Positions 12,837 to 40,428 of a stretch of DNA of 64,000 nucleotides are shown here, piece by piece. How positions within the stretch are numbered: the first letter of the stretch is position 1; each line of letters begins with the position of its first letter. The DNA is from an uncultured bacterium (GTDB lineage: Bacteria > Vulcanimicrobiota > Xenobia > Xenobiales > Xenobiaceae). A program made the translations under genes and the position numbers. The stretch lies in assembly GCA_934636825.1 (NCBI GenBank), contig CAKUBG010000005.1, forward strand, positions 47,491 to 111,490, in the 5' to 3' direction. The notes under the pieces were generated by a model that saw only the letters and a list, made by a program, of their open reading frames with translations, made no database searches and was not told the DNA's origin.

Positions 12837-14714
12837 ATGAAATGTCTGCCTGTTGAAGAATCAAATTGGCGTTGTTTAAAATCTGCTTGTCAAATTGCTG
12901 CTGTTGCCTTTATGGCAAGTTTTATTCTTTATCTTGTAACTTTGGCTCCGGCTATTCCGCCCGGCTTTGATAGTGCAGAATTGATTGGCGCTTGTGCTGC
13001 TGGCGGCATTGCCCATCCTCCCGGCTATCCGCTTTATACTATGCTGGGTTGGTTGCTTTGCTCGTTGGGGTTGGCCGCCCCGGCTCTAACGATGAATGTC
13101 TTTTCGGCTTTGTGCTCAGCTGCTGCTTGTGCTTGTTTAGCTTTCGGCTTATTTTTGACGCTTAATTCCGCTTGGGGAGCTTTGGTTGGCGCTTTCTGTT
13201 TCGCTTTTGCTTTGAGCCCTTGGCGCATGGCAGTTGGAGCTGAAGTCTTTGCTTTGCACTTATTCTTTCTCAGCTTATTGGCGGCTTTGGCGGTAGTTTA
13301 TAAAAAAATGTCTGCTTGGCGCCCTTATATGCTGTGGATTTTGAGTTTCATTCTGGGGCTTTCTTTTTGCCATCACCATACAACGGCGCTTTTTCTTCCG
13401 GGACTGGCTATATTTCTATATCTGAGCAACCAAAGCTATGATTCGTCTTCTGAAAGCAAAGCCTCAAAGCCGAAAGCCAAGCAAGGTGCCATGTTTAGCC
13501 GCTGCGCTGTTATAAGCGTTGCTTGCTTGTGCTTCGTATTGGGATTGCTCCCTTATCTTTGGCTTATAGGTAGGGCACGCTTTTTAACTGCCCAGGCCGA
13601 GCCCTTTGTGGCCTTTAATTGGGGCAATCCCTCAAGTTGGACAAATTTTTGCTGGGTTGTGACGCGCAGCGGCTACGGCAGTTTGCAACTGAGCACCAAA
13701 GGTGACGGCGCTTCCGGGGCGGCTTCACTGGCTTATTGGCTATGGTCATTGGTTTTTAAGCAATTCAAGCTTTTTGCCGCAGCACTGGGGCTGTGGGGAA
13801 TAGCCGTGGCTTGGAAGAAGCAACGGGAATTTTTTTGGCTTTTTGGTTGTCTTTTAGCTTTGGCAGGGCCTATCTGGGCTTTATATGCAGCCCAACCGGA
13901 TAGCGAAGGCTATCAAGAAATGATGGAGCGCTTTTTCTGCTCTTCATATTTGGCCTTTGGAGCCTTTATCGGCTGTGGGGCTGCAAGTTTAACCAATTTG
14001 GCGACACTTAAACAAGAAGCAAAAATAAAGAAGTGCTTGATTTACATTGCTTTGGTGGCTGCTTTGCTTTGGCCTCTGTCGTCTAATTGGAATGGAGCTT
14101 CCGAGCATGGGCAATATTTAGTTAATGATACTCTGCTCTATATGGCTACTTCTATACCTGATAAAGCTGTGGTGGTTGCTCAAAATGATGCTGTTTGTGG
14201 CGGTTTAATTTATGCCAAAGCTGTATTAAAGCGCGATTTTGTATTTATTCCGGTGGGAGTTTGCCATTCGCCCTGGTTTGTAGATTCGTTGCCATTTGCT
14301 TATGCTCAAACTTTAAAAACGCAAGGGCTGGCGGCTATGTTGGATCTGGCTTGGCGTGAAGGACGTGCCGTTTATTTTGACGACGAGCAAACAGCCGGAC
14401 AGTGCGGATTGGAATATGTGCCTTCGCATTATATTGTGCGCCAAGGATTGTTGTTTCGCTATGTAGGCAACGAAGAAAAAATATATGCTTCGGAAACAAA
14501 CCTTCGGCAATATCGCCTCCGGGCGCAGCGTGAGTTGGAAGAAGCGGTTAAGCAATATCATGCCGATTCTTACACAAAAAAGGCACGTCCATTTTGGCAT
14601 AAATTTATGCTCAACAAATGGGAACGTGCCCGCGAAGCTTTGGATGAAAACGCCGAATTAAGCAAAATCGAACAATTTTGCCTACATGCTGAAGAGGCAG
14701 CTAATGAGAATTAG
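12837..14714 (+). CDS. polytopic membrane protein, DUF2723/TMEM260-like putative GT-C glycosyl(mannosyl)transferase, with a C-terminal soluble helical domain
   Basis: About 11 predicted TM helices. The first extracytoplasmic loop carries FDSAELIGACAAGGIAHPPGYPLY (acidic D-x-x-E followed by HPPGYP), which I recognise as the DUF2723/TMEM260 signature. C-terminal ~200 aa are soluble. Confidence 0.55.
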   Translation: MKCLPVEESNWRCLKSACQIAAVAFMASFILYLVTLAPAIPPGFDSAELIGACAAGGIAHPPGYPLYTMLGWLLCSLGLAAPALTMNVFSALCSAAACACLAFGLFLTLNSAWGALVGAFCFAFALSPWRMAVGAEVFALHLFFLSLLAALAVVYKKMSAWRPYMLWILSFILGLSFCHHHTTALFLPGLAIFLYLSNQSYDSSSESKASKPKAKQGAMFSRCAVISVACLCFVLGLLPYLWLIGRARFLTAQAEPFVAFNWGNPSSWTNFCWVVTRSGYGSLQLSTKGDGASGAASLAYWLWSLVFKQFKLFAAALGLWGIAVAWKKQREFFWLFGCLLALAGPIWALYAAQPDSEGYQEMMERFFCSSYLAFGAFIGCGAASLTNLATLKQEAKIKKCLIYIALVAALLWPLSSNWNGASEHGQYLVNDTLLYMATSIPDKAVVVAQNDAVCGGLIYAKAVLKRDFVFIPVGVCHSPWFVDSLPFAYAQTLKTQGLAAMLDLAWREGRAVYFDDEQTAGQCGLEYVPSHYIVRQGLLFRYVGNEEKIYASETNLRQYRLRAQRELEEAVKQYHADSYTKKARPFWHKFMLNKWERAREALDENAELSKIEQFCLHAEEAANEN

Positions 14715-15537
14715 TTAGGCGACGGCGAGCTTGCTCTAAAGATTCGGCGTCATCGATATTATAAGCCGTTTCCGCATAAGGGCTGACCACACCGCAACAA
14801 GGCAACTTCAACAATCTGGCGGCGGCTTCTTCGGCCATAGGAATAGTCAATTTACCTATGAGCAAATAAAACAATGTTTTTAAGCCTAAAATTCTGGCCA
14901 GTTTGAAAGGGTTTTTACGTCCGGCAGTTACTGCTGCCATAGCTTGTTTTATGGCTTCGGCAATATCGGCTCTTAGACAAGTTAAGCCGCCGCCACAGAA
15001 AGTGCCTTCTACCATTTTTACCCAAGTATGGCGTACTTCAGGATATTTTGCTTGAGAAACGGCTTTGTCCAAAAAACCATACCACAAAACATTATGTGGC
15101 TTAGTACTGCATCTATCCAGAAAATCGTCAACGGCTTCTGTAGTTAAAAAAGGTAGATCGCCGGCAACCAACAGTACGGGATCGTGGCTTGAAGGCAAAG
15201 CTTGGAGTCCTGAAAACAAAGATTGTATCAGACTGGAACCAGCCGGAGCCACCTCGTCGACACCTTCCCACTCTGGCCCCAAATCTTCTTTTTTTACTGG
15301 GCTTACTAGGATAATGCGGCGGATACGCTGTGATTGGCGCAAAGCTGCCAAAGTGTAGGCGCTCATGGGTTTATTCCCCAGCATAATATGGCCTTTGCCG
15401 GGTACTTCCGGCTCTGAAGCGGGCAGATCTTTTAGTCGGCCACCTGCCAAAAGAACCGCATCGATAGGTATATCAAATTTGTCTTCGGGGTTTGCTAAAT
15501 TCTTGGGCATTGTTGAATCACTCATTCTTGCACACAT
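14701..15537 (-). CDS. MobA-like nucleotidyltransferase (NTP_transferase_3 family)
   Basis: DAVLLAGGRL...G is the N-terminal GT-A nucleotide-binding signature. Its ATG lies 1 nt after the ispE stop (translational coupling), and its 3' end overlaps the convergent 12837 gene by 14 nt. Confidence 0.6.
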   Translation of the reverse strand: MCARMSDSTMPKNLANPEDKFDIPIDAVLLAGGRLKDLPASEPEVPGKGHIMLGNKPMSAYTLAALRQSQRIRRIILVSPVKKEDLGPEWEGVDEVAPAGSSLIQSLFSGLQALPSSHDPVLLVAGDLPFLTTEAVDDFLDRCSTKPHNVLWYGFLDKAVSQAKYPEVRHTWVKMVEGTFCGGGLTCLRADIAEAIKQAMAAVTAGRKNPFKLARILGLKTLFYLLIGKLTIPMAEEAAARLLKLPCCGVVSPYAETAYNIDDAESLEQARRRLTNSH

Positions 15538-15538
15538 C

Positions 15539-16474
15539 CTAAGCGAAGCGGGTTAAATAGACTCGCCCCAATTTTTCTAAGCTATGTAGCAATTCTGGCT
15601 GAGCTTGGACTTGCTGGTAAATTTTGGGGTTGAGCATAGCAAATATCGTAGAGCCGCTACCGCAAAGTTGGGCTGCTTGGCATCCCCAGGCGAGCAAAGC
15701 TTCTCTTATGGAGGTCAGTTCAGGTTGCATACTTTGAGCGGCTGGGTAGAGATCATTTTTCAATTCGTTGAGAAATAGAACTTGCCATAGGCTGGCATCT
15801 TGGGCATGAGGTGCAGGTTGATTCTCTAAAAGCTTGACTAAATTGGCGGAACATCCCTTAGCCGGGTGGCGTTTTCCTTCAGGCAATTGATCCCAGGCTT
15901 TGTAAACTTCCGGTGTGCTTAGTCCAAAAGGCGGAATGAGCAAAAGAACTCCCCAATCTTTAAAGAGCTCGGGAGTCGGCAACTTGCTCAGTTGCTCGCC
16001 CTTACCTAAACCGCGGGCTGTATTTTCCACCAAACCAAAGGCTACATCTGCTCCCAATTTAGCTGCTTCCGATAATAATACTTCATGGGATAGTTTCAAA
16101 TCATAGAGTTCATTTAAGCCCTTTAAAGCGGCTGCGCAATCGGCACTGCCGCCTCCAAGGCCGCCGCCGGCCGGTATATTTTTATGTAATTCAAAGTGAC
16201 AGGGCAATTCTTGTCCAGTAAGTTTTTGCAAAGCATTATGGGCTTTTAGTACCAAATTGTTTTGATCGGCACTTACTTCAAAACCGCAACCTATTTCGTC
16301 AACTATTTCTAAATCAGTCTTTGGGGCTTTACTTAATAAAAGTTTATCGGCTAACTCTAAACTTTGAAAAATTGTATCTAACTGATGATAGCCATTAGGC
16401 AAAGTATCCAACAATTCTAAAGTCAAATTTATTTTGGCTAGGGCCTGATAACTTAAAACATTTTGATTTTCCAT
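15539..16474 (-). CDS. ispE: 4-diphosphocytidyl-2-C-methyl-D-erythritol kinase
   Basis: GHMP-kinase motif NIPAGGGLGGGSADCAAAL, with the N-terminal KINLTLE typical of IspE. Confidence 0.9.
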   Translation of the reverse strand: MENQNVLSYQALAKINLTLELLDTLPNGYHQLDTIFQSLELADKLLLSKAPKTDLEIVDEIGCGFEVSADQNNLVLKAHNALQKLTGQELPCHFELHKNIPAGGGLGGGSADCAAALKGLNELYDLKLSHEVLLSEAAKLGADVAFGLVENTARGLGKGEQLSKLPTPELFKDWGVLLLIPPFGLSTPEVYKAWDQLPEGKRHPAKGCSANLVKLLENQPAPHAQDASLWQVLFLNELKNDLYPAAQSMQPELTSIREALLAWGCQAAQLCGSGSTIFAMLNPKIYQQVQAQPELLHSLEKLGRVYLTRFA

Positions 16475-16551
16475 GAGAATATACCTTATTTTGCATTTAT
16501 AAGTTGATTTTTATCGCGTTTAACAAACAGCTTTGCTCAATGCGACACAAA

Positions 16552-16597
16552 CAAAAAAAATCCCCCACTTGCCGAGCGTGCCCGAATAGTGGGGGAA
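16552..16597 (-). terminator. rho-independent terminator downstream of the 16621-18663 gene
   Basis: TCCCCCACT...AGTGGGGGA stem with a T8 run on the minus strand. Confidence 0.65.
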
Positions 16598-16620
16598 TGA
16601 TGTCGAGGATTAGAATAATT

Positions 16621-18663
16621 TTACTCTTCCGAAGTTTCGTCTTTAGCCTCTTTGGTTTTTTCTGTTGGAACTTTGAGAGCCAACTTATAGGCTAAGGGAG
16701 ACTTGAAAGTGGACAGTTGAGCTTTAGCCAACTCTTCAAGTTGAGCAAACTTGTCTTTGTAAATCCAGGTAAAGTTTATCTGGGTACGGCTGTAGAACCA
16801 TACTTCCGAGCCTTTAACTACTGTTTTACAAGTGTAGGAACCTACATCATTGCTTAAAGTCATATCCTGAGGTTGAGCTACCACCTTGCTATCTTGAGGA
16901 AGAATTACATGGTAGCGTATTTCATCGATAAAAGGAGCATCAAAACGAACAGGATAGAGGCGAGAAGCGCTATTGAGGCCGGCTTGCAAAGACTGACCTT
17001 GGGTTATGGGCAAAGGAGTCTCAAAACGATCCCTTTCGCGACTGTAGCGAGCGTAGTTGGCAAATTGTACGGAAGTACCTACGGTTACCGGCGCCTGGTT
17101 GTCCATTTCGGCGGGGAAGAAGTTGGCATAGGGAATTGTTTGGAAGCAGAAGTTGCTGTTAAACTTACCTATAATCCAATTTACCATTTCTTTGCGCTGG
17201 GCATCAGTTAAAGCTTGAGCTTGTCCTTCAGCGGTAAGCAAAATGTTAGCACGGGGGCCGTTGTAGGTAATGTCGGCATTGAGCTGACCTATGCCACTGG
17301 CTTCGATACGTCCCTCCATATTGTAAGAACAAATATTGTCTTCCGGAGAACCTATAGGAGCGCTTATCAAGCGGCCGGGCTTAGAGCTATGAGGCGAAGG
17401 AAGCTCGAGCATAGCTGAGCCTTGCCAACCTAAGTTGGGCGCATTAAGAGCAGAGCCTGGCAAAGAGGGATCGATCCACCAAGTTTTGCCGCCGGGATCG
17501 GAAACTTTGAGCAAAAATTGGCTAAAATAGGTAGGTATGGGAGGTAATTCAGCCATGGTCTGCAGATCGGAACTGGCAGCCATATATACGTTAACTCTCA
17601 AACCGGCCCTTTTTAAAAGGGCTCCGGTCAGATAAGCTGCGTCTTGATAGGTGAGCAACTTGGAAGCAGTGGCTTGCTTGAAATCGACAGAACGCCAGAT
17701 ATTTTGATCTTTATCTAAGACAGAAAACTTGGACATATAACCGAGTACGTCTTGTATGCGCTGTTCGGCAGGTTTACCTACCGAAGTGATGCGGCTGCAA
17801 AGCATACTCAAAGAGGCGTCGCTGTCGGAAGTATTTTTATCCCAAACTTCGGCAGCCCATTTGCTGAGATCTTTCCAATTGGCAAAACTAGAAGCAGCTA
17901 CATATTTGTAGTAGTTGAAAGACGAGGGCATACTGACATTGCTAGTAATAGCGTCAAAAGCTTCCTTCGTTTCCCAGAAGTAGGTACGCTTTCCTTTGCT
18001 CTCGGTTATTTTGGGAGAACTCAGGTAGGACACATTGGAAAAAGTGTAGGCTTTTTCTTGTGAAGGTACGCTCACTTTGTAAGTAGAGTGCAAAATGGGC
18101 AAATCATTTTGCAAGTAAGAACAAGCCCACCATTGCTTATCTTTTCTGGGCGCATATTTAGTCTTGACGGAATATTCAATTACTGATCCCACTTCAACGT
18201 TAGGAAATTCCGCTATGTAAATTTGACGATCTTGGTAAATAGGAGCACCATTGATGGCAGCTATAGTTTTGAAATTGGCTGCTGGCACTTCGGTGACTTG
18301 TCCATTAGGACTAATCGTGCGGGCGTATTCAAATTCTATAGTTTCAAAAGAAGCGTCAAAATTTCTAGGGTAAAGACGGAAAAGTTTTACGCCTTCTTCA
18401 TTAAGAAGCTTAATAGCGTTATGCTCTGTCGCTTCAGCGGAATAATCTTCGTTGAGCTGATAAGTAAGGTCATCTTCCAGAATAAGGGCGCAAGCATTCG
18501 GATATTCTTTCAATCCTGGGGAATTAAAGAAACGACTGTCCGGTTTGGAAGGCGAATCGGCAGCTTGCACACTCAAAGGAAGTGTTGCCAATATAAATGC
18601 GGCTGCATACAAAAAGTGTTTGAACTTTTTGCTAAGAATCTGCGGCCTAAAATTAAACTTCAT
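16621..18663 (-). CDS. secreted protein with transglutaminase-like core whose catalytic Cys appears substituted (DUF3857/TGase-like), hypothetical
   Basis: Signal peptide MKFNFRPQ...LPLSVQA/AD. The segment TYQDAAYLTGALLKRAGLRVNVYMAAS resembles the transglutaminase-core G-x-C-x-x-F...ARxV motif with Cys replaced. ATG at 18663 has a GAGGA RBS, and the track start at 18681 is a non-ATG codon. Confidence 0.45.
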   Translation of the reverse strand: MKFNFRPQILSKKFKHFLYAAAFILATLPLSVQAADSPSKPDSRFFNSPGLKEYPNACALILEDDLTYQLNEDYSAEATEHNAIKLLNEEGVKLFRLYPRNFDASFETIEFEYARTISPNGQVTEVPAANFKTIAAINGAPIYQDRQIYIAEFPNVEVGSVIEYSVKTKYAPRKDKQWWACSYLQNDLPILHSTYKVSVPSQEKAYTFSNVSYLSSPKITESKGKRTYFWETKEAFDAITSNVSMPSSFNYYKYVAASSFANWKDLSKWAAEVWDKNTSDSDASLSMLCSRITSVGKPAEQRIQDVLGYMSKFSVLDKDQNIWRSVDFKQATASKLLTYQDAAYLTGALLKRAGLRVNVYMAASSDLQTMAELPPIPTYFSQFLLKVSDPGGKTWWIDPSLPGSALNAPNLGWQGSAMLELPSPHSSKPGRLISAPIGSPEDNICSYNMEGRIEASGIGQLNADITYNGPRANILLTAEGQAQALTDAQRKEMVNWIIGKFNSNFCFQTIPYANFFPAEMDNQAPVTVGTSVQFANYARYSRERDRFETPLPITQGQSLQAGLNSASRLYPVRFDAPFIDEIRYHVILPQDSKVVAQPQDMTLSNDVGSYTCKTVVKGSEVWFYSRTQINFTWIYKDKFAQLEELAKAQLSTFKSPLAYKLALKVPTEKTKEAKDETSEE

Positions 18664-18764
18664 AAACAAAATCCTCGACAAACTAAAACAGACACACTGC
18701 CGGTATTTAATCCTAACAGGCGCCTATTGTTTCGTGTATCTTCTCTTTTTCAAGAAAAAATTTG

Positions 18765-19061
18765 TTATTTGCCCTTTTTCTTATCGCCTTTAGTCTCGTC
18801 CGATTTATCGAGTGAAGTGTGACCGCTCTTCTGACTGGGCTTAGGAAGAGAAATTACTTCTTCCTCTAAGCCGGCCGCTCTGGCTACGTCATCGTCAGTC
18901 GCTCCTTGTAAATTTGCCAAAACTGTTAATAAGATGGCAGCTTTTTCCAAATTTTCTTCTATGGCGTGCAGACGAATAAGAATGATGACGGGAACGGTTA
19001 CACCGATAATTACCAGCGCAATGGCGCATAGCAGCAATGCGGTGCTAATAGTTGTAGACAT
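18765..19061 (-). CDS. small single-pass membrane protein with a Lys-rich C-terminal tail, hypothetical
   Basis: 98 aa with one TM (LLLCAIALVIIGVTVPVIILI). GGGAGG RBS 9 nt upstream. Confidence 0.5.
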   Translation of the reverse strand: MSTTISTALLLCAIALVIIGVTVPVIILIRLHAIEENLEKAAILLTVLANLQGATDDDVARAAGLEEEVISLPKPSQKSGHTSLDKSDETKGDKKKGK

Positions 19062-19245
19062 GCTTTTATCCTCCCTGTTGAATGTGGCCGCCGACTAAGC
19101 GAGTAAAATTATGTCAAACATAAAAACAATATGTTGATTTGACATACGCTATGTTGTGAAGCGCAAAAAGCTGAGCTTACTTGCACCCTTTGCCACGTAA
19201 ACTGTGAACGAATATTTTCTTCCATTACGTGAACTTACCTTCACC

Positions 19246-21336
19246 CTATTTTTGAGCTTTCGTTTTAAAGTGGCGCGTGTCATATATTTTTAATAGGTAT
19301 AATTTTGGGGTAACTTCTCCGGGAATTAGGTCTTTTTCGTAAGAATATTCCTCTATAATCTTTACCGGCGGTCCAAAAATAACTTCTAGCCTTTGACAAA
19401 TATCTTTAAAGACAGCTTGTCCCTGATCCGGGGCTACTGTATAAGCTCCACTGCGGGGGCGGTGACTACACAGCCGCTCACTTACAGCAATTAAATTGTA
19501 ACCTTCATGTTGTATAGCTTCCAAATCGTTGCGACTAAAATGACGGGGTATGTATTGACTGCCCAAGTCACTTATAAAGCCCAGAAAGCTTTGGTCTACC
19601 AAAGCTTGTTTGTCAAAGAGCCAAACGTCTTTACCGCTATTGTAAAGATGGCGCGAAAACAAACCTCTGTTGCGATCTATAACTAAGCGCAAATCCACCA
19701 AAGTAAGATCTGGGTCATAGTAAAAATTATGGTTATAATCGCTGGTCGCTTGCCAAGGTCGTCGCCCTAGAGGAACAAAGATCGCGCTTTCTGATAAATG
19801 TTGTTGTGACTGGGCGTAATTGCTTATGGCTGGAGCGAGCTTGGTAGAGGGCCAAGGCAATTGCTTGCGTTGTATGGCTTCGCCAAAAGGCAAAATAATA
19901 GCGGCAACCGTTATTATAGCTAACAATTGAGGAGAAAATTTTTTGTTATCTCGCAGTGCTTCCAGGCTCATGGCTACACAAATCGCTGCGGCAATGGCAA
20001 ATAATAATATAGTTTGGCATGGCCAGAACAACTTGTTTAGGAGCGGCATATGGTCGCAAAAAAATTTGTAAGGCAAGGGAATAGGGTGGCCTTGCCAGCA
20101 AACCAATTGGGCTTTGTGCTTGAGAAACGGCCCTAAGGGCAGCCAATAAAAGGCTGCGGCGGCCCAACACCAAAACTTCAGCCGACTCTTGTTTTTAAGC
20201 TCGGCTTGCGTGCAAAGCAACAAAAAAGCCAGCACGACCATTAGGCTGATATTGGCTGAAAATGTCGCTTCTGTGGGAACGCTTTGCGGAGGATTGATAG
20301 GAGTGCTTAAGCCTTTGGTCGGCTGAACGAAAGCGTAAAAAGCTTCACACGAATAGGCAATGCTCTGTCTGTAAAGCGTTGACACGTCGGGAACGCGCCC
20401 AGGATCGGGACGAACCAATCCGGGAATATTGTCGTGAGAAAATAGACGCGTCAAGTAAGGATGAGCAGCTGGCAAAATTATTACACTGAAGCTTAAAACA
20501 AACAGAAGCAAGCTGCTCCAAGTTTCAATATTAAATTTCAGCTTAAATGAAGGAAGCTTTTTCTCCCTTCCCCAACAAAGGGCCGCCGCTGTGGCATGAT
20601 AGAGCGCAAAGAACAACACAAAAATTACGGCAAAATGGCCATAAAACCAATAATTGCAGGCTGTCAGAGCTAGGAGGGTTCCGCAACGGGCCCATTTCCC
20701 CGGATCATTTTGTCCCCAAGCTAAAAGAAAACTGCCAATAAAAAAGACTGGCCAAAAAGTTTGCGCTTCGATAATGCGTCCTGTGCTTAACAAGAACCAT
20801 TGCCAAGGGTTAAAGGCAAAAAGGAGCCCTCCTAAAAAAGCTGAGCTGGGACGACAGCCCATTTTGCCGCAGAGCCAACGCGCAGCCAGAGCATCGGCCA
20901 CTACGATAAGGATACACTTTACGTTGTAATAGAGGGGAAAGCCAAACAATTTGGCTAGAGGCCAAGTCCAGACAAAATCCAGACCGTTAGCTACACTGCT
21001 GCGTTCTCCAAAACTGACTAAATGATTATATAGTTCCGGAAGTCTGGCTAGAGATCCGGTTAGGCCGTAATTAGTGATAAAAAAGTGGAAAGTTTGATAA
21101 TAATATTGCTCCCAGGAATGATAGATCCAGAGCGTTTGTGCTGTATTTTCGTGACCCAAATAGCCTATAACAGCTTGTTTAGCTTGCCAAATAAATGAAC
21201 CGGCGCACAAGATAGACAGCAAAACATAAAAAATCGCCGAGAAGCGAAAGTCGCAAAATGAATCCGCGTGGGCAAAAAAATCTTTTACGGCAAATGTGCT
21301 GTGGGCTGAAGTTTGGCTTTTATTTTCGTCTGGCAT
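19246..21336 (-). CDS. large polytopic membrane protein (696 aa), GT-C-like architecture, paralogous to the 22567 gene
   Basis: At least 12 TM helices. It has a W-rich first loop (TLWIYHSWEQYYYQ) and a ~200 aa C-terminal soluble domain. Family not identified. Confidence 0.5.
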   Translation of the reverse strand: MPDENKSQTSAHSTFAVKDFFAHADSFCDFRFSAIFYVLLSILCAGSFIWQAKQAVIGYLGHENTAQTLWIYHSWEQYYYQTFHFFITNYGLTGSLARLPELYNHLVSFGERSSVANGLDFVWTWPLAKLFGFPLYYNVKCILIVVADALAARWLCGKMGCRPSSAFLGGLLFAFNPWQWFLLSTGRIIEAQTFWPVFFIGSFLLAWGQNDPGKWARCGTLLALTACNYWFYGHFAVIFVLFFALYHATAAALCWGREKKLPSFKLKFNIETWSSLLLFVLSFSVIILPAAHPYLTRLFSHDNIPGLVRPDPGRVPDVSTLYRQSIAYSCEAFYAFVQPTKGLSTPINPPQSVPTEATFSANISLMVVLAFLLLCTQAELKNKSRLKFWCWAAAAFYWLPLGPFLKHKAQLVCWQGHPIPLPYKFFCDHMPLLNKLFWPCQTILLFAIAAAICVAMSLEALRDNKKFSPQLLAIITVAAIILPFGEAIQRKQLPWPSTKLAPAISNYAQSQQHLSESAIFVPLGRRPWQATSDYNHNFYYDPDLTLVDLRLVIDRNRGLFSRHLYNSGKDVWLFDKQALVDQSFLGFISDLGSQYIPRHFSRNDLEAIQHEGYNLIAVSERLCSHRPRSGAYTVAPDQGQAVFKDICQRLEVIFGPPVKIIEEYSYEKDLIPGEVTPKLYLLKIYDTRHFKTKAQK

Positions 21337-21371
21337 GATTTCACAATTGGCAAAGTGTTGGCAAAATAAGG

Positions 21372-22451
21372 CTATCTAACTTCAGGAGGTGGCGGCCCTT
21401 CTCGTTCAATGGGAGGAATGGCGGGGTTTAATTCCTTACGCAGAGCAGCCTCTGATTCCGATAAAGCAAGAGATTCTTTTATTAGGTGCAAAGTTTTAGG
21501 GTAGAGTAAATCCTGTACAAACCGTTTATCTAGTGCTTTTATTTCTGGCTCTCGAAGCAAAACTTCCCATTGCTTTTCTGGGATTAACTTGACGGCTTCG
21601 TCATGTAAAATGCTTAAACGCAATGACGATATTCTGAGTCTTTCCAGTATAATTAAGCATTCTTGAGCTTGTTGAGACTGAAGTTTTGGGTGGGCAATTT
21701 GGCAAAGGTTCTGCAGAGAAATAAGTATTCTCAGAGGATGAAGTTCCAATTGAGAGGCTTTTTTTAGCAACCGGTGACGCTCTGGCGAAAGTGCAAAACC
21801 TGGGGCGGAGGACAGTGGCAAAGGCGCTGTATTTAAGGGAGGTAAACTGAGATTGCGATATAGTCTCAATGTTTTCTCTTCAGCGGCTATATCTTTTCGA
21901 TCGCCTCGGAGCACTTCTGCAAGTGAATCCAGATCTTGCAAGCGACCATAAGCGGCCCAGTGGGCATTTTTCTTCAAAACAGAAATTGCTTTAGTATAAG
22001 TTCTTATATCCGAACCTTCGGAGCCTCCACAAGAGTAAGGAGTCAATGAATCATCTAGACTGAGAAAAACTCGCAGTTGTTCGGTAGAGAGGCGCTCATA
22101 TAACTGAGAATATAGGTTTAGACTATTATCGACTTCTTGTTCGGCCAAGTTTTCCAATAAAGCAAAATGTTGACTGTCGGCGACCGATAGCGGCCAGAGA
22201 CCTTTTTTTTGTAATAGCTTTTGACAGCGCTTAAGTCCGAGCCAGTCTAGGCAAACTTGGCTATTTTCTACATTTCTTAGCGGATTAAAACCGCTACCTT
22301 TGGTAAAAACATAGCCTTCGCGACGCATTTCATATCCGTCTACACTTTCGCGACAGCTGCAAGTGAGTAAAGCCAACTCCACTACAAGTACAAAAGTTAA
22401 ACTGACAATAGCTATAAAAACGTATTTTTTTGAAGTTTGGCTCGCCGTCAT
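21372..22451 (-). CDS. N-terminally anchored hypothetical protein (359 aa)
   Basis: Single N-terminal TM (FIAIVSLTFVLVVELALL) followed by a Leu-rich helical domain. No known motif. Confidence 0.45.
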   Translation of the reverse strand: MTASQTSKKYVFIAIVSLTFVLVVELALLTCSCRESVDGYEMRREGYVFTKGSGFNPLRNVENSQVCLDWLGLKRCQKLLQKKGLWPLSVADSQHFALLENLAEQEVDNSLNLYSQLYERLSTEQLRVFLSLDDSLTPYSCGGSEGSDIRTYTKAISVLKKNAHWAAYGRLQDLDSLAEVLRGDRKDIAAEEKTLRLYRNLSLPPLNTAPLPLSSAPGFALSPERHRLLKKASQLELHPLRILISLQNLCQIAHPKLQSQQAQECLIILERLRISSLRLSILHDEAVKLIPEKQWEVLLREPEIKALDKRFVQDLLYPKTLHLIKESLALSESEAALRKELNPAIPPIEREGPPPPEVR

Positions 22452-22566
22452 ATGAGTGCAAAGCCCTTCGTATAGGGGAAAAGGAAAACCTGCTTTAGAA
22501 ATAGCAGCCTTCTTTATGGTGGTTTAATACTGATTTGAAGCCTATTTTTTGAGCGCAGGTTAATTC

Positions 22567-24546
22567 ATGAATATTATGCAAAGCGAGTCGCCGACTAATG
22601 ATAATAAGCATATGGAGCAAATCGAAAGCCTAACCGGAAAAGCGGTTGGCCATTTCCCCGTACAAATTGAATTTATTTTCGTCGGCCTTTTTTTGGCTTT
22701 GCTTACAATTGCCGCTCTTTGGCCTGCACCAATCCATTTAGAGGAAAATTTAATAGGCGATTATCAAGGTGATTTTTGGAAGCATTTATGGGGCCACTGG
22801 TGGGTACGTGATAGTCTGGCTAAGGGACAAATACCTTTATTCTGCGATTTACTCAATGCTCCACGAGGCGGTTATTTGTTTATTGCCGATCCTTGCAATG
22901 CTATTTTCAGTTATGTCTTTTCCAACTTTGTCGGTTTAGCTGGAGCCTACAATTTAACGATAATTTTTAATTTATGGCTCGGTTTGCTGGCAGCTTGGTT
23001 ACTGGCTCGTTATTTTGTCAAGGACGGAGCTTGCGCTTTGGTGGCAGCTGTTATTTACGGTCTTTCCGCTTATGTGCTTAGTTATCCGGTCTCTTCCGGA
23101 GTAACCGAAACGTTAAATACCGCTTGGGCGCCGTTGTATATTCTTTTTTTACATCGCCTTTTGAAAAATGGTCGAATAGGAGATTTGCTTGGCGCTGCCT
23201 TATTTTTTGCGCTTACCACTTTTTCGTGTTGGTATTATGGCGAATTTATGGCGGTGTATACCAGCTTGGCTTTGGGGTGGTCTTTATTTGAGCTTTTGCG
23301 CACCTTTTGGAAAGGGCGGACTTTCTCTATATCCTCTTTAGTACGTTCGTCTAGAATGAGAAAATCTTGGCGATGTTGTTTACTTGCAAGCTGGAACGAG
23401 TGCGCATGGATATGGAAAAAGCAAATTATAAAAACTGCGGCGGCAATTGTTATAGGGGCGATTATTATTTCTCCTTTTGCTTGGCTTTTCAAGATGACCG
23501 TTTCTAATTCGGCTAATATTGTTATGCCGCGCAAAGCTCCCAAACGTTCCATATTTAACTTCAAAGATTATTTGGGCCAAGCTCCAGAAAAGAGCGTAAA
23601 TCAACATGGCGTACGTGGTTTTCACAATTATACAAATTTGTTGGGCTTAATTTTGCCGGGCAAGGGTAATGCCACAGTTACGTCTACGGTAGACAGGTTA
23701 GTCAGAGTCCATTATTTGGGATGGATAGCTTTACTGTTGGCTTTTGCAGCTTGGCGTCGCCAAACTTGGCGACGAGAATTTTTGTATTGGATAATTGTAT
23801 TCGGATTTTTTATCGCCCTTTCTTTAGGGCCGCGAGTTGTTTTTTCTGATTTTTCTGAGGCAGGCTTTGTCAATCCGTTTTACCTTTTGATGTTTCTCGG
23901 CTTTCCATTCTTTTATAATTTGGCCATTCCGTTTCGCTTTTTGATGTTGGCTCTTATAGGCTTGTCGATAGTGGCTGCTTACGGAAGTAAAGCACTTTGG
24001 GCTGAAGAAGCGCCTGCTCGCAAGTGGTTTTTTTGTTTATTGGCTTCGCTAATGATCTTTGTAGAAACTATTTTCGTATCTCCTTTACCTTGGCCGTTGC
24101 CGATGAGTCCGGCTCAAACTCCGGCTTATTATCAAATGCTAGCTGAGGATCCGCGCTCTTATGCCATAATAGACTATCCTTTCGAGAGGCCCGGAACTAT
24201 TTTGGTACCTGGCGAATATTTCTATTACCAAACTGTACATCGCAAGCGCATACCTTATCGAACCAGTGGAGTTTTGAGCCCGGAGGTAGTGCATAATGCT
24301 TTCATGGAAGAAGTCTTGTTAGCTCAGAGAGGCATTAAACCTTCTTCACAAAGTGAAAGACGATTGCGTGAAGGAGCCAAAGCTCTGTTTGATATGGGGT
24401 TTTATGCTTTTATTTTGCATGAAAATTTGCTGGCCGAATTTTCTGCTCAAGATATAGAAAGTCGTTTGACGCCGATTTTGGGAAAGCCGATGCGCTTCGG
24501 CGACGGTTTGATTGTCTATAATTTGGATTCGCTAAATGATAAATAA
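22567..24546 (+). CDS. large polytopic membrane protein (659 aa), GT-C-like architecture, paralogous to the 19246 gene
   Basis: Similar topology to the 19246 protein and the same style of first-loop motif (GDFWKHLWGHWWVRD). It is transcribed divergently from the 22451 gene. Confidence 0.5.
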   Translation: MNIMQSESPTNDNKHMEQIESLTGKAVGHFPVQIEFIFVGLFLALLTIAALWPAPIHLEENLIGDYQGDFWKHLWGHWWVRDSLAKGQIPLFCDLLNAPRGGYLFIADPCNAIFSYVFSNFVGLAGAYNLTIIFNLWLGLLAAWLLARYFVKDGACALVAAVIYGLSAYVLSYPVSSGVTETLNTAWAPLYILFLHRLLKNGRIGDLLGAALFFALTTFSCWYYGEFMAVYTSLALGWSLFELLRTFWKGRTFSISSLVRSSRMRKSWRCCLLASWNECAWIWKKQIIKTAAAIVIGAIIISPFAWLFKMTVSNSANIVMPRKAPKRSIFNFKDYLGQAPEKSVNQHGVRGFHNYTNLLGLILPGKGNATVTSTVDRLVRVHYLGWIALLLAFAAWRRQTWRREFLYWIIVFGFFIALSLGPRVVFSDFSEAGFVNPFYLLMFLGFPFFYNLAIPFRFLMLALIGLSIVAAYGSKALWAEEAPARKWFFCLLASLMIFVETIFVSPLPWPLPMSPAQTPAYYQMLAEDPRSYAIIDYPFERPGTILVPGEYFYYQTVHRKRIPYRTSGVLSPEVVHNAFMEEVLLAQRGIKPSSQSERRLREGAKALFDMGFYAFILHENLLAEFSAQDIESRLTPILGKPMRFGDGLIVYNLDSLNDK

Positions 24547-25642
24547 GCTAATCGTAAAATATCGAGAATCTGCTAGCCCTTTGCTATTACGCGAATTAAG
24601 GCTTGTTTTAGCTCAAAGCAAGCTTTGCTTTTGGGAAGCTATTTTACCTATCTTTTGGTCGCTTTATCTTGTTTGGAGTTTTTGCTTGGCTTGGGAAGGC
24701 AGCTACCAGCCTGTAATCTCTTGCTCACATATGCTATGTTGGTTGACTGCTGCTTTTATCTTAGGTCAATATCTCGGATTAGCTCCGCGTTTAGCTGCTT
24801 CAATTTGCTCAGATCGCCGCTTGGGCATATACAAAATGCTTAGCGTTACCCCAAGAGGTTGTTGCCGAAGTTTGTCCTTAAAATTGTTGGCTTTTTCAGC
24901 TCCATATCTAATTGAATGGTGCTTATTATCTTTAAGCGGTGCCATTTTCTGTATGTTTACCCCTGAACTTAACGCGGAAATTGTGCTAGCCTCTTCTATA
25001 TACAGTTTGTTGTCTTTGCTAGTAGCCACCTTTGGGGGCACTTGGTGGGGTATCTCTTTTCAAAATACTTCAGATAAGTGTACCGCTTCGTTGCGCAAAT
25101 TGTTAATTACGGCAGCTGTGGGAGCTTTTTGTTTGCACAATTTTTGGCATTTTAGTCAAATGGAAACAGTCTTAGTATTATGTAGCTTGTTAATCATCCT
25201 TTGGAGTGGATCGATACGCATATTTTGGAGTGACTTTTCTATAACTTTAGCTTTATTATTGATAGGATTGTCCTTTGTACCTTCTATAGGTCACTCAGAC
25301 TGGCCGTTGGAAGATTGTTTTAATCCAGTTCGTGTAAGTTTGGCTGGCATGTATGCTCTCGATAGAGAGGCTTTGCATAGTGATAATTTGGCTTCGGATG
25401 GTGCCTATTCTATTTTGCGCGAACATTTAGTCGGCAGCCAAGAATCTCCATATTTGAGTCAGTTGCTCCATCTCTATAACGAAGCTTCTCAAGTGAGTCA
25501 AGAACAAATTTATGCTCAAGTGCGCAGTGAAGCTGAAATCTATTTATTAAGAAGTTGTGGGGCCAATCTTGTTGCATCTGTTGTTTGCGCTCTCGGCGCT
25601 TGTTTGATGCTGCTGCGCTTACGCTCAAGCTTTGAAGTATAA
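24536..25642 (+). CDS. polytopic membrane protein (368 aa), hypothetical
   Basis: 8-10 predicted TM helices. Its start overlaps the preceding gene by 11 nt, suggesting an operon. Confidence 0.45.
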   Translation: MINKLIVKYRESASPLLLRELRLVLAQSKLCFWEAILPIFWSLYLVWSFCLAWEGSYQPVISCSHMLCWLTAAFILGQYLGLAPRLAASICSDRRLGIYKMLSVTPRGCCRSLSLKLLAFSAPYLIEWCLLSLSGAIFCMFTPELNAEIVLASSIYSLLSLLVATFGGTWWGISFQNTSDKCTASLRKLLITAAVGAFCLHNFWHFSQMETVLVLCSLLIILWSGSIRIFWSDFSITLALLLIGLSFVPSIGHSDWPLEDCFNPVRVSLAGMYALDREALHSDNLASDGAYSILREHLVGSQESPYLSQLLHLYNEASQVSQEQIYAQVRSEAEIYLLRSCGANLVASVVCALGACLMLLRLRSSFEV

Positions 25643-25828
25643 AAATGTTTACTGGTCTTTTAGTTTGTTTATTTTCTTGAATTTGTGTATATTTATAGGC
25701 GGTCGCGGCGCCGACCCGATAGAGGACTGAATTGCCGCTGAACAGGCTATGGCAAAGAATCCTTTTGAAAATTGCGCCGAGCTAGGCAAGGCTTGTTGTT
25801 GAAGCTTTGCCGTAATATGGAGTTATTT

Positions 25829-27658
25829 ATGGCCAGACAAGTTTATGCGGGTATGGATGCCCAGGAAAAGGAAAACGATCCCCTTTATAAGAGACGTCAC
25901 TCTTTGTCCCATATTTTGGCAGAGGCAGTGCAGCGTCTTTACCCCGACACTAAGTTAGGTTTCGGCCCGCCCGTAGATAATGGCTTCTACTATGATTTCC
26001 AATTTTCAACGCCAATTGATGCGGACAAGCTTCCGGAAATTGAAGCTGAAATGCGTCGCATTATCGCCGAGAAACAGACTTTCACCCATTACGATCTCCC
26101 TCTCGAAGAGGCCGTAAAGCGTTTAGAAGAAAAAGGTGAAGTTCTCAAGGCCGAATATGTACGCGACCTTGCCAGCGAGGGCAAAGATATTCACTTCTAT
26201 GAAAACGGTGAATTTACCGATCTCTGTGCCGGCCCTCACGTTGGCAATACTTCCGAAATTCCCAGCGATTGTTTCGCTCTCGACTCGGTAGCCGGAGCTT
26301 ATTGGCGTGGCGATCAATCTCGTGAAATGCTGACCCGTATCTACGGTTTAGCTTTTAATAACAAGAAAGAGCTCAAAGAGTTCTTACGTTTGCGTGAAGA
26401 AGCTCGCAAATACGATCACCGTAAGCTCAGCAAAGAATTAGAATTCTATACCATGAATGAAATGGTTGGCTTGGGTTTGCCTCTTTGGTTGCCTAACGGT
26501 ACCGTTTTGCGTGAAGAGTTAGAAAAATTTGCTAAAGAAACTGAGCAGCGTGGTGGCTACTTGCGCGTAGCTACTCCTTGCATCACCAATGAGCAACTTT
26601 TCTATACCTCCGGCCATCTTCCTTACTATAAGGACAGCATGTTCCCGCCTATGCAAATAGACGAGGGTCAGAATTACTATCTCAAGCCCATGAACTGCCC
26701 CTTCCACCATATGATCTTCAGCAGCCGTCCTCGCTCTTATCGCGAGTTACCTTTGCGTTTGGCCGAATATGGACAGTGCTATCGCTATGAAGCTTCTGGT
26801 ACGTTAGCTGGTTTGCTGCGTGTGCGCGGTATGTGCATGAATGATGCTCACATTTACTGCAGCCCTGAGCAATTAGCTGCCGAGTTCAGAGCCGTTTTGG
26901 ACATGCACCGCTTCTATTATGACAAGTTCCGCATTGAGGGATACTGGATGCGCTTGTCTATGCACGATCCTAAAAACACCAAGAAGTACGTAGACAATCC
27001 TGAAGCTTGGGCTCAGTCTGAAGATGCCATTCGTCAAGTGGTCAAGGATATGGGCGTGCAATACGAAGAAGTTCCCGGTGAAGCCGCTTTCTACGGCCCC
27101 AAAGTAGACTTCCAAATTCGCAACGTAGTTGGACGCGAAGAGACCGCTTCTACCAACCAGCTCGACTTCGCTGTACCTTCTCGCTTTAACTTGGTCTATA
27201 CAGGCAAGGATGGCGAATATCACACTCCTTATTGCATTCACCGTGCTCCTTTGGGCACTCACGAACGCTTCTTGGCTTTCTTGATGGAACACTTCAAAGG
27301 TGCTTTCCCCACCTGGATGTCTCCTACTCAAGTTATGGTCGTGCCGGTTTCCGTCGAAAAGTTTGGCGATTACGCCGAAAAGATTGCTGCTTCTTTGCGT
27401 AACGATCTTTACAGAGCTCAAGCCAACTTGGACGGTGACAGCTTCAACAAGAAGATTCGTGCTGCCGTCACTTCCAAAATTCCTAACATTTTGGTCGTCG
27501 GTGCTTCCGAAATGGAAAACGAGACGGTCACTTGGCGCCGTTATTGCGTAAAAGAGCAGCGCACTTTGAAGTTCGCTCAATTCCGCAATATTTTAGGCAA
27601 GATGTGCCACGAACGCATTATGGATAACTTCGCCGACGTGGTTTTGCCCGAAGAATAA
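25829..27658 (+). CDS. thrS: threonine--tRNA ligase lacking the N-terminal TGS domain
   Basis: The N2 editing domain HxxxH (HSLSHILAEAV) lies about 22 aa from the start, and class II catalytic and anticodon-binding domains are present. GGAG RBS precedes the ATG at 25829, with an alternative ATG at 25817. Confidence 0.9.
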   Translation: MARQVYAGMDAQEKENDPLYKRRHSLSHILAEAVQRLYPDTKLGFGPPVDNGFYYDFQFSTPIDADKLPEIEAEMRRIIAEKQTFTHYDLPLEEAVKRLEEKGEVLKAEYVRDLASEGKDIHFYENGEFTDLCAGPHVGNTSEIPSDCFALDSVAGAYWRGDQSREMLTRIYGLAFNNKKELKEFLRLREEARKYDHRKLSKELEFYTMNEMVGLGLPLWLPNGTVLREELEKFAKETEQRGGYLRVATPCITNEQLFYTSGHLPYYKDSMFPPMQIDEGQNYYLKPMNCPFHHMIFSSRPRSYRELPLRLAEYGQCYRYEASGTLAGLLRVRGMCMNDAHIYCSPEQLAAEFRAVLDMHRFYYDKFRIEGYWMRLSMHDPKNTKKYVDNPEAWAQSEDAIRQVVKDMGVQYEEVPGEAAFYGPKVDFQIRNVVGREETASTNQLDFAVPSRFNLVYTGKDGEYHTPYCIHRAPLGTHERFLAFLMEHFKGAFPTWMSPTQVMVVPVSVEKFGDYAEKIAASLRNDLYRAQANLDGDSFNKKIRAAVTSKIPNILVVGASEMENETVTWRRYCVKEQRTLKFAQFRNILGKMCHERIMDNFADVVLPEE

Positions 27659-27860: not shown

Positions 27861-29303
27861 TCAGCGTCCTATAATTAGAACATAAATGGCTACTTGGCAA
27901 TTCCAAAGAGCGTGAGCTATAACAGACGGCCACAAACTGCCTGTATAGTGACGAACTGCACAAAAGACCATACCTAAGCCGGCCAAAACTAAAATACCTT
28001 GAGGATCGCCATGCACAGAAGAAAACATTAGCGAGCTTATAAGCGCTGCACCGATTACAGTAGCTGTCTTGCCAAGTCCGGAAAAGAGTAAGCCGCGATA
28101 AATAATTTCTTCATAGAGCGGGCCGCTGATTACCAAGAAGAATAACAACCAAAAAATTGGCTCCGGAGCTTCCACAAGGAAGGTGAGCAATATATTGTTT
28201 GACTGTACGGAAGATTGAATAAAAAGCGAAGTTAGCAAAGCCATAAGGGCGGCTGTAAGGCAAGACAAAGCAAAAGCGGCGCAGCCATAGGCTAGATATG
28301 AAGCTTTAAATTCGTGTAAGTGTAAAGCTCGGAATAGCAAAACCACTGATCTTTTTATTCCTGACCAATGGTTAAGAATGGACGTTTCAGCTTCGTCAGG
28401 CTCACATACATATTTGATTGTGAAGGCCAAAATCGCAATAGAAACCACATAGACGAGCATTTGGGAGAAGAACAAAATGACAGGAATATACTGTCTACTT
28501 GGGCCTGTAAAATGGAGCAGCAGAGCAGTTAGTAAAGCACTTAAACAGGCTCCCAACCAGTTTAGAGCTACAAATAAGTATAAGGTGGGAATTGGTTTCC
28601 AAAGAAAATGATCTTCAGATTGTTTCTTTTCCTCATAGCGTTCACTGTTTTGAGAAGAAAACGCCTTGATAGCAAATGCTGCTAATAGAATAAAAGATAA
28701 AGTAACTAAAGCTCCCCAAAGACCTAATATTACCAAGAAACGATCTGCCTGTTGTTGCAAAGAGAGGATACATTCTTGCAATAGTCCGTTTTGTTTCAGT
28801 TGTGCAGTGCCTTTTTGCATAACTTGCATAATGAAACTATAAGCTAAAGGATCGCTGTAAAAATTATCGGTTTCCTTTAGTTCTATATTCAGTAGATTAA
28901 AAGCACTTTGTGTTTCTTCCGGAGTAGGTATTTGTCCATCACTTATTTTTAAGAGGACGTCGGTAACGGAGCTGGCTTCTTCGGCACGAATTTTCTTCAA
29001 AAGAGCTCCAGCTTTGTTAGGTTGGTGGCAAAGGTAATACAAGGAAGCTGCGTTGTGAAGATTAGGACTGGAAGCTTTGTCAAAGTCTATTCCATCCAAT
29101 ATCGCGGCTACTTGACCTTCCATCATGGGCAAATGCCATTTCTGGCTTACACGCATAGCTCTGCAAGCAAGTCTTATTTCTAAATTAGTATGAAAATATT
29201 GTTGCCAAGAAGTGTTGTCGGCATCTCTAAAAAAAGCCGGAATGACCAAAGGCAGCCATAAGGTTAGGGCTACCAGCACTAGTAAAATTCTCTTACCGCT
29301 CAT
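27861..29303 (-). CDS. CPBP-family (CAAX protease/Abi) intramembrane metalloprotease with a large N-terminal extracytoplasmic region
   Basis: Signal/TM at the N-terminus. C-terminal motifs EEIIYRG (motif 1), FSSVHG (motif 2) and HALWN (motif 3). Confidence 0.78.
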   Translation of the reverse strand: MSGKRILLVLVALTLWLPLVIPAFFRDADNTSWQQYFHTNLEIRLACRAMRVSQKWHLPMMEGQVAAILDGIDFDKASSPNLHNAASLYYLCHQPNKAGALLKKIRAEEASSVTDVLLKISDGQIPTPEETQSAFNLLNIELKETDNFYSDPLAYSFIMQVMQKGTAQLKQNGLLQECILSLQQQADRFLVILGLWGALVTLSFILLAAFAIKAFSSQNSERYEEKKQSEDHFLWKPIPTLYLFVALNWLGACLSALLTALLLHFTGPSRQYIPVILFFSQMLVYVVSIAILAFTIKYVCEPDEAETSILNHWSGIKRSVVLLFRALHLHEFKASYLAYGCAAFALSCLTAALMALLTSLFIQSSVQSNNILLTFLVEAPEPIFWLLFFLVISGPLYEEIIYRGLLFSGLGKTATVIGAALISSLMFSSVHGDPQGILVLAGLGMVFCAVRHYTGSLWPSVIAHALWNCQVAIYVLIIGR

Positions 29304-38217: not shown

Positions 38218-38324
38218 GTTCTGTTAGCCGGAGGCCTTGGTAAAAAGAGGGGCTGAAGGATTTCTATAGAAACGAAAATTTGGGTTCGTATAAGGACGCG
38301 GACCACATAGTCGGAGGTGTTCTA

Positions 38325-39098
38325 ATGCTTGAAGGGATGAGAATGGCTGCTCAGGGTATGATGACCCAGGCCGCTAAACAAGATGTCATCACTAATAACT
38401 TGGCCAATGTAGGTACCGCTGGTTTCCGCAAGGAAAGTGCCCAGATTACCTCTTTTAACGAGATTCTCAATCGTGAAGTCGGTGGCATGGACGGTATGAC
38501 CCAGTCTTCTTACGAGATCTCCACCGCTCCCGGTATGGAAGTTTCCGGTAAACTTTACACCAGCTCGGTGACTCACAACGCTCAGGGTTCATTGAAGGAG
38601 ACCGGCAACCCCTTTGATATGGCCTTGGATGATAATGGACGCGGTTTCTTCACTATCCAGACCAAAGACGGAGTACGCTTTACCAGAGCCGGTAATTTCC
38701 ATCTCTCTACCAATGGCGAATTAGTCACTGCCGATGGTTCTCAGGTGATGGGTCATCGTGGCCCCATCAAATTACAGGGCAGCAATTTCACTGTATCTAA
38801 CGACGGTGTAATCTCCAGCGACGGTCGTCCCATCGACAAGATCTTGGTAGCCGTTTTTGACAATACCGACCAATTGAAGCGCACTGGCGACAACCAGTTC
38901 ACCGCCACAACCAAAGTTAGCGCTACTAACGATTTCCAGCTCAAACAGGGATATGTTGAGCAAGCTAACGTCAACGCTTTAACCGAAATGGTCGACTTGA
39001 TGATGGTGACACGTAACTACGAAGCCAACCAGAAGGTTCTTCAGGCCAACGACAAAATGTTGGAAAAGACTGTCAATAACGTCGGAACCGTTCGCTAA
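38325..39098 (+). CDS. flgF: flagellar basal-body rod protein FlgF/FlgG family (proximal rod, likely FlgF)
   Basis: The N-terminal NNLANVGTAGFRK and the C-terminal rod-protein helix (...ANVN...E..D.I...R.YEAN.K) are present. ATG at 38325 follows a GGAGGTG RBS. Confidence 0.78.
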   Translation: MLEGMRMAAQGMMTQAAKQDVITNNLANVGTAGFRKESAQITSFNEILNREVGGMDGMTQSSYEISTAPGMEVSGKLYTSSVTHNAQGSLKETGNPFDMALDDNGRGFFTIQTKDGVRFTRAGNFHLSTNGELVTADGSQVMGHRGPIKLQGSNFTVSNDGVISSDGRPIDKILVAVFDNTDQLKRTGDNQFTATTKVSATNDFQLKQGYVEQANVNALTEMVDLMMVTRNYEANQKVLQANDKMLEKTVNNVGTVR

Positions 39099-39224
39099 TT
39101 CGATTAAACTGACAGTTTGAAAAAATACAGCTTGTCCGCCCAAATAAAAACGGCGGGCAGCTGGATTATAGTAAGAGCTTCTGCTAAGCTCGTACAACAA
39201 GTCTAATTTGGAGGAACAAATATT

Positions 39225-39995: not shown

Positions 39996-40065
39996 TTTCG
40001 ATTGATATTTTGACCTCTGCGTCTGAATATAATCGGGCGCTTGGGGTATCTATTTGGAGGCTATT

Positions 40066-40374: not shown

Positions 40375-40428
40375 CCAAAGTACGGCTTTTGCCGCTGTTA
40401 GCGTCGGAGCTTCGTATCTATTTTAAGC

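Follow-up and report, generated by a model that had tools for sequence, protein, structure and literature searches.

The 64 kb stretch of DNA analysed here (the window) comes from an uncultured gut bacterium. Its proteins find their nearest database relatives among those labelled Candidatus Bruticola sp. (class Xenobia, phylum Vulcanimicrobiota/Eremiobacterota). It includes a 13 kb run of nine genes, g1 to g9, that an earlier sequence-only reading had interpreted as an island interrupting the housekeeping backbone and as a candidate lipid-linked glycan transfer system. The coordinates and strands given there for the nine open reading frames (ORFs) agree exactly with the ORF list. Within the run lie two genes for large polytopic membrane proteins, g6 (19246-21336, minus strand, 696 amino acids (aa)) and g8 (22567-24546, plus strand, 659 aa), which are the main subject of this report. 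Between them are g7 (21372-22451, minus strand), specifying a 359 aa protein with an N-terminal anchor, and a divergent intergenic region of 115 bp (22452-22566) that separates g7 from g8. The remaining genes are g1 to g5 on the left, including the isoprenoid gene ispE (g3), and g9 on the right.

The g6 and g8 proteins had been described as mutually paralogous, and they are, as remote paralogs recognisable by profile-profile comparison only. BLASTP gave no significant similarity between the two sequences (E 0.047), while an alignment of g6 homologs matched an alignment of g8 homologs with an hhalign probability of 99.95% (E 1.3e-38, 562 columns). Both proteins are polytopic and carry a conserved N-terminal transmembrane (TM) module of the glycosyltransferase C (GT-C) type, followed in g8 by a C-terminal extracytoplasmic alpha/beta domain. 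AlphaFold models were obtained with a predicted local distance difference test (pLDDT) value of 86.8 and a predicted template modelling (pTM) score of 0.88 for g8, and with values of 79.4 and 0.85, respectively, for g6. A Foldseek search with the g8 model returned 17 oligosaccharyltransferase catalytic subunits as the first-ranking matches, and the top structural match of g6 was Pmt4. Transporters were found with g8 only at E > 0.3 and a probability below 0.1, so that neither the profile nor the structure searches place g6 and g8 in a well-characterised transporter family. Protein-glycosylating enzymes rank highest structurally, with AftD, AftA and ArnT scoring nearly as well; since the WWDYG motif of oligosaccharyltransferases is also absent, structure alone does not specify the class of acceptor. 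On the basis of these models, g6 and g8 are predicted to adopt the GT-C glycosyltransferase fold of the STT3/PMT/ArnT-like class, and would presumably act as enzymes of that class.

Enzymes of the GT-C type use lipid-phosphate-linked donors and carry a catalytic aspartate in the first luminal loop, corresponding to D52 of TMEM260 and D77 of PMT1 (PMC10214176). An alignment of g8-like proteins (n = 65) shows D69, D108, E181, R457 and E500 to be invariant, as are E63, D120 and K140 among g6-like proteins (n = 35). The acids D69 and D108 of g8 are located between TM1 (residues 32-50) and TM2 (residues 124-151) of the model, that is, in the first extracytoplasmic loop, and E63 and D120 of g6 occupy the same loop between TM1 and TM2 of its own model. 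The acidic loop residues looked for in GT-C enzymes are thus present and invariant in both families, and may well be catalytic. Individual relatives of g6 and g8 match Pfam families of the GT-C clan only, and weakly (YfhO, PTPS_related, STT3, DUF2079, PMT_2 and DUF6057), the best E values being 9e-7 for YfhO and 2e-5 for PMT_2. PDB sequence searches with the g6 and g8 profiles gave no match.

Given the structural ranking, g8, and perhaps g6, might be taken for an oligosaccharyltransferase that transfers glycans, preassembled on undecaprenyl-pyrophosphate, to proteins en bloc, in the manner of PglB or AglB. This is unlikely, as neither sequence contains WWD, the core of the WWDYG-type motif, and g8 has instead the invariant C-terminal residues P538, Q555 and H558. 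No protein of the window matches the Pfam STT3 family, to which only 2 of 28 relatives show a weak match, g6 is structurally closest to Pmt4, and no glycan-assembly genes are found nearby.

A scan of species genomes detected at least 215 relatives of g8, and 80 loci were examined, pairing being scored with hidden Markov models (HMMs) of both families. The non-duplicate loci contain 78 g8-like genes, of which 15 are cut by contig ends, leaving 63 that are informative. A g6-like gene adjoins the g8-like gene in 42 of these 63, across several phyla. It lies immediately downstream in tandem in 31 of the 78, many of these pairs having a 4-nt overlap, and divergently upstream in 11 of the 78. Paired loci come from metagenome-assembled genomes (MAGs) labelled Myxococcota, Deltaproteobacteria and others, and outside Xenobia none of the other seven genes of the run accompanies the g8 family or the GT-C pair. 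Recurring neighbours of the pair in other phyla are a lipoprotein-like protein of about 300 aa, encoded divergently upstream (25 loci), a B12-radical SAM enzyme (23 loci), an OmpA-family protein (16 loci), a small family 2 glycosyltransferase (GT2) of about 260 aa (14 loci) and a PEMT-like methyltransferase (9 loci). The presence of the small GT2 fits a supply of lipid-linked sugar. Some of the MAGs holding the Myxococcota-type cluster of lipoprotein-like, g8-like and g6-like genes are titled Enterobacterales, Klebsiella or Bifidobacterium breve (records L022, L026, L030, L037, L041, L043, L055, L058, L060, L061, L068 and L086), and these bin labels are probably wrong.

Xenobia genomes carry a second divergent pair (loci L023, L049, L050 and L062). 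In Bruticola-like genomes, the g8-like protein of this second pair is partnered by a g6-like protein that has diverged (hhalign probability 97%), and the pair (L016, 9830-19880, and L018) lies directly beside the flagellar genes fliF-fliG-fliH-fliI, making a link between the pair and a cell-surface machine possible. Flagellar genes are also found in the window itself, where nt 38280-41419 encode rod proteins, a rod-binding protein and a sigma-70-family factor (Sigma70 regions 2-4). A longer g8-like subfamily (about 915-1000 aa) is distinguished by some 300 extra aa inserted in the central part of the protein (L005, L046, L057, L059, L064-L067, L074 and L078). Its genes often precede one for an LPG_synthase_TM-family membrane protein, with a B12-binding radical SAM enzyme encoded nearby, and Bruticola-like genomes also hold such a longer paralog (about 915 aa) by an LPG_synthase_TM protein and a B12-radical SAM enzyme.

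The protein specified by g7 has one TM segment (residues 8-34), in agreement with its earlier description as anchored, and is probably extracytoplasmic, ending in a Pro-rich tail. Orthologs of about 280 aa are found at the equivalent position in three other loci (L003, L012 and L014), with a DWxGL motif that is invariant. Only 5 homologs were detected among 1.84 billion representative sequences; the family is restricted to Xenobia, evolves rapidly and is always encoded between g6 and g8. The divergent g7/g8 arrangement is kept in L003, L007-L009, L011, L014 and L015, and the 115-bp region may be a shared control region.

On the other side of g8, g9 (24536-25642, plus strand) encodes a polytopic membrane protein of 368 aa and, as previously noted, overlaps its neighbour, the overlap with g8 being 11 nt. 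The protein matches no known Pfam family, has no PDB sequence match and shows no profile relation to the g8 family. Of the four large membrane proteins of the run, three (g1, g6 and g8) are GT-C-like, and g9 shows no GT-C signal. The nine database matches to g9 are all at genus level, and the protein evolves fast; a weak homolog in L003 has been relocated 2.7 kb from g8 and lies on the opposite strand. An N-terminal PLLL(R/K)EL segment of g9 hints faintly at an ABC-2-type permease, for which Pfam and PDB searches returned nothing. We regard the g9 membrane protein as specific to the lineage and its gene as coupled to g8.

The order of all nine genes is kept in five genus-level genomes (L001 and L007-L010). 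The flanking thrS, Rce1-like and histidine kinase genes are equally collinear in the same genomes, so that gene order at this level reflects slow rearrangement and says little about function. In more distant Xenobia/UBP9 genomes, where g8 shows about 51% identity, the divergent g6-g7/g8 triad is kept, but in altered surroundings. Between the triad and the DUF3857 gene there are now genes for a Ser/Thr kinase and two M16 peptidases, and YceI, a family 4 glycosyltransferase (GT4) and a TPR protein between the triad and thrS. The block is split there into a group encoding the 98 aa protein, the DUF3857 protein, IspE and the NTP transferase, then the g6-g7/g8 triad, a relocated g9 homolog, and thrS, and the nucleotidyltransferase gene remains with ispE and the DUF3857 gene, not with the GT-C genes. 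The nine genes are, accordingly, co-conserved within the genus and dispersed beyond it.

The group just mentioned consists in the window of g5, g4, ispE and g2, all on the minus strand. The ispE gene (15539-16474) specifies 4-(CDP)-2-C-methyl-D-erythritol kinase, a housekeeping enzyme of the methylerythritol phosphate (MEP) pathway; it scores 162 bits with TIGR00154 (cut-off 138.7) and has both the N- and C-terminal GHMP kinase domains, so the statement of the sequence-only reading that none of the nine genes has an assignable function was wrong in this case. The g2 gene (14701-15537) encodes a nucleotidyltransferase of 278 aa. It had been called MobA-like and coupled to ispE, and both points are borne out, by a match to NTP_transf_3 (E 2e-12) and by a spacing of 1 nt between the ispE stop codon and the g2 start codon (TAG g ATG). 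Its best PDB relative is the uncharacterised protein TTHA0179 (2dpw, E 3e-22), for which no paper mentioning the protein was found. The possibility that g2 is a divergent IspD was rejected, since it scores only 31.4 bits with the IspD equivalog model TIGR00453, whose trusted cut-off is 181.3.

The product of g4 (16621-18681, 686 aa) is predicted to be secreted, and carries a signal peptide, a DUF3857 domain (E 6e-29), a degenerate transglutaminase-like core and a weak DUF3858 match. No transglutaminase core is detectable by profile, the expected position of the catalytic Cys reads YQDAAYL, and a PDB sequence search gave no match. A distant ortholog retains a weak Transglut_core match, which together with the YQDAAYL segment makes the earlier label of a secreted, Cys-less transglutaminase-like protein plausible. 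The small gene g5 (18765-19061) specifies a 98 aa single-pass membrane protein, as had been proposed, with one TM helix by hydropathy. It is kept upstream of the DUF3857 gene across Xenobia, with tblastn matches beside DUF3857 in L003, L011, L014 and L015. The family searches assigned neither g5 nor g7 to a family. In a distant Xenobia locus (L087, 18091-21736), the DUF3857, ispE and NTP_transf_3 genes overlap by 4 nt each. Judged by gene order, g5-g4-ispE-g2 appears to be a separate, class-wide operon around housekeeping isoprenoid synthesis (Unit B). The translational coupling of a secreted DUF3857 protein to a cytoplasmic MEP-pathway kinase makes it an odd operon.

At the left end, g1 (12837-14714, plus strand) encodes a polytopic protein of 625 aa that had been recognised as a DUF2723/TMEM260-like GT-C membrane protein. 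It matches the Pfam TMEM260-like family PF11028 with 75.7 bits (cut-off 24.2; E 5e-21) over residues 45-199, and the match opens at GFDSAELIG, an Asp-containing loop motif directly after TM1. No TPR domain was found in g1, even at E values up to 10. Profile comparison shows no relation of g1 to the g8 family, and BLASTP similarities to g6 and g8 are not significant. The DUF2723 gene is absent beside the NTP transferase and ispE genes of L087, its place being taken by a hydrolase gene. Based on its sequence, g1 is a candidate independent GT-C enzyme of the TMEM260/DUF2723 type (Unit C), of a family separate from g6/g8 and adjoining the other genes at genus level only.

The flanks of the nine genes are housekeeping in nature. 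EF-G and RidA are encoded upstream, where ridA and g1 are transcribed divergently, and the genes downstream are those of ThrRS, an Rce1-like protease and a histidine kinase. Within the block the GC content is 0.42-0.46, as against 0.41-0.51 outside, the skew resembles that of the flanks, and Pfam scans of the window found no mobility genes. With this ordinary composition, and with a gene order that is collinear in all genus-level genomes and vertically conserved, the run is not an island interrupting the backbone. Counts of sigma-70-like promoter and terminator signals were not above the shuffled expectation, so that the scan is uninformative on operon boundaries. The longest ORF for thrS (25772-27658, plus strand) begins with TTG and gives 628 aa, as against the 608-609 aa annotated for the orthologs, and translation probably starts some 19 codons downstream of this TTG. 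Fast evolution is evident in the Rce1-like CPBP intramembrane protease (27861-29303, minus strand), with only 42-77% identity among the genus-level genomes, in contrast to the adjacent thrS, which shows 96-99%.

A single lipid-linked glycan pathway comprising all nine genes would have g2 activating a sugar, ispE feeding the carrier, the GT-C enzymes carrying out transfer, and the secreted proteins serving as substrates or scaffolds. The collinearity within the genus, the six co-directional genes with short gaps, the three GT-C enzymes inside 13 kb, and the looser order NTP transferase-ispE-DUF3857 ... g6-g7/g8 ... thrS that persists at class level could all be cited in its favour. Unrelated genes interrupt the block at class level, however, and g1 is not adjacent there; g2 stays with ispE and DUF3857, and ispE is a universal MEP enzyme. 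The thrS, histidine kinase and Rce1-like genes are just as collinear, a sign of slow rearrangement and not of shared function. Outside Xenobia, the GT-C pair travels without the other seven genes. Pfam scans of the window (45 of 47 selected ORFs of at least 90 aa) revealed neither a GT2 polyprenyl-phosphate sugar synthase nor a GtrA- or Wzx-type flippase. With the block broken up in distant Xenobia, the g8 family occurring elsewhere without the other seven genes and a window lacking GT2 and flippase genes, the nine-gene pathway put forward by the sequence-only reading is unsupported, and we consider it quite unlikely. To judge from gene order and composition, the 13 kb stretch appears to be a vertically inherited neighbourhood of the Candidatus Bruticola chromosome, consisting of at least three independent units.

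The reading that we favour, and hold to be fairly probable, is that the paralogs g6 and g8 constitute a conserved pair of GT-C glycosyltransferases, encoded around the anchored g7 (Unit A), with Units A, B and C independent of one another and g9 lineage-specific. Several observations weigh against it. Neither g6 nor g8 has a Pfam or NCBIfam match at threshold, including to YfhO (PF09586), PMT_2 (PF13231) and STT3 (PF02516), and the invariance of the W75-W79 motif is in part a consequence of its use as a search pattern. No g6-like neighbour is detectable with the HMM for 21 of the 63 informative g8-like genes, showing that pairing is not obligatory. The lipoprotein-like gene of about 300 aa at the equivalent position in other phyla was considered as a counterpart of g7 and rejected (hhalign probability below 1%), so that the role of g7 may be lineage-specific or unrelated. 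Lastly, the donor-supplying GT2 and flippase genes are missing from the window, although they could be located elsewhere in the genome.

It is very doubtful that one or both paralogs are non-catalytic scaffold or lipid-binding subunits with a GT-C fold, comparable to PIGU/GAB1 of the glycosylphosphatidylinositol (GPI) transamidase, or that they catalyse a non-glycosyl transfer. A mere local duplication with independent functions and a meaningless adjacency is highly improbable: g6 and g8 are indeed paralogs, the same genomes hold more paralogs elsewhere (L016/L018 and L064-L067) and 21 g8-like genes have no g6-like neighbour, but subfamilies so deeply diverged that BLASTP fails to relate them, yet adjacent in 42 of 63 loci (Xenobia, Myxococcota-type and other MAGs) and in many cases joined by 4-nt stop/start overlaps, are not expected from a recent or functionally neutral duplication.

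If g6 and g8 are indeed a glycosyltransferase pair, a polyprenyl-phosphate-linked sugar or glycan would be made and flipped by the products of genes elsewhere in the genome. Its transfer to an envelope acceptor, be it a protein, a wall polymer or a lipid, would take place at the outer face of the cytoplasmic membrane. The first-outer-loop acids (D69/D108 of g8 and E63/D120 of g6) would serve as catalytic or metal-binding residues, and the C-terminal outer domains, possibly with g7, would recognise the acceptor, g7 being a candidate accessory or acceptor protein. Because both subfamilies are co-encoded across phyla and are often translationally coupled, it is most likely, by analogy with Pmt1-Pmt2 and EmbA-EmbB, that g6 and g8 work as a hetero-complex or perform consecutive steps on one product. 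More tentatively, g6, g8 and g7 may represent an undescribed heteromeric GT-C system, composed of two ancient paralogs and a membrane-anchored outer subunit and extending from Xenobia to Myxococcota-type bacteria, that modifies a protein or polymer of the envelope with a glycan.

Elsewhere in the window, nt 46501-49644 (plus strand) encode a 1047 aa fusion protein that combines a sugar-1-phosphate nucleotidyltransferase, a left-handed beta-helix, phosphoglucomutase/phosphomannomutase domains I-III and DUF5752. It is located 21 kb from the GT-C pair and could provide nucleoside diphosphate sugars (e.g., GDP-mannose) for glycosylation. A 531 aa protein without Pfam match (7784-9379, minus strand) has an N-terminus resembling a lipoprotein signal (...VIGCGG), after which comes a linker rich in Ser, Thr and Pro, TGTRSTPTGTSTPVPPTPDD. 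Segments of this type are O-glycosylated by GT-C enzymes in streptococci.

Cell envelopes and surface proteins are decorated by GT-C enzymes, which thereby shape antigenicity as well as resistance to phages and antibiotics. What is new at this locus is a widely distributed GT-C module of two paralogs, and not a new kind of pathway, the supposed nine-gene module being made up of ordinary units. If the assignment is correct, the catalogue of GT-C enzymes would gain a family that has no curated model, extends to 215 or more species genomes and is most often encoded as a coupled pair of paralogs. It would also offer a tractable case for studying why some GT-C enzymes act as hetero-pairs, and a first point of entry to the glycosylation of the envelope in Xenobia, an uncultured lineage of animal guts (Vulcanimicrobiota/Eremiobacterota).

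Among known systems, the closest to g1 is the protein O-mannosyltransferase TMEM260 (PMC10214176), whose Pfam family it matches above threshold and with which it shares the loop Asp after TM1. Human TMEM260 has a C-terminal TPR domain that the C-terminal half of g1 lacks, bacterial homologs are uncharacterised, and g1 is tied to g6/g8 by genus-level adjacency only. The oligosaccharyltransferases STT3, AglB and PglB differ from the window proteins, which have no WWDYG motif or STT3 Pfam match and are only about 10-13% identical to them. Multi-component transmembrane glycosylation systems consist of a GT-A glycosyltransferase, a flippase and a GT-C enzyme (PMC8035078), as in those with a CsbB/GtrB-type GT-A, a GtrA flippase and a YfhO/GtlB/GtrC-type GT-C. 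As in those systems (PMC8035078), the GT-C component would be expected to modify an acceptor of the envelope from outside the membrane; weak YfhO matches occur among the relatives of g6/g8, and a small GT2 lies near the pair in the 14 loci of other phyla. The window differs in having no GT-A or flippase gene, two GT-C paralogs instead of one, and no YfhO match. GT-C(A)-class glycosyltransferases that form paralog pairs are known in yeast Pmt1-Pmt2 (GT39) and mycobacterial EmbA-EmbB. The g6 and g8 proteins have neither a GT39/PMT_2 match at threshold nor MIR domains (no MIR or PMT family of Pfam is matched by either), and it is by analogy with these pairs that a hetero-complex is proposed for them; a further difference is the anchored protein, g7, associated with the pair.

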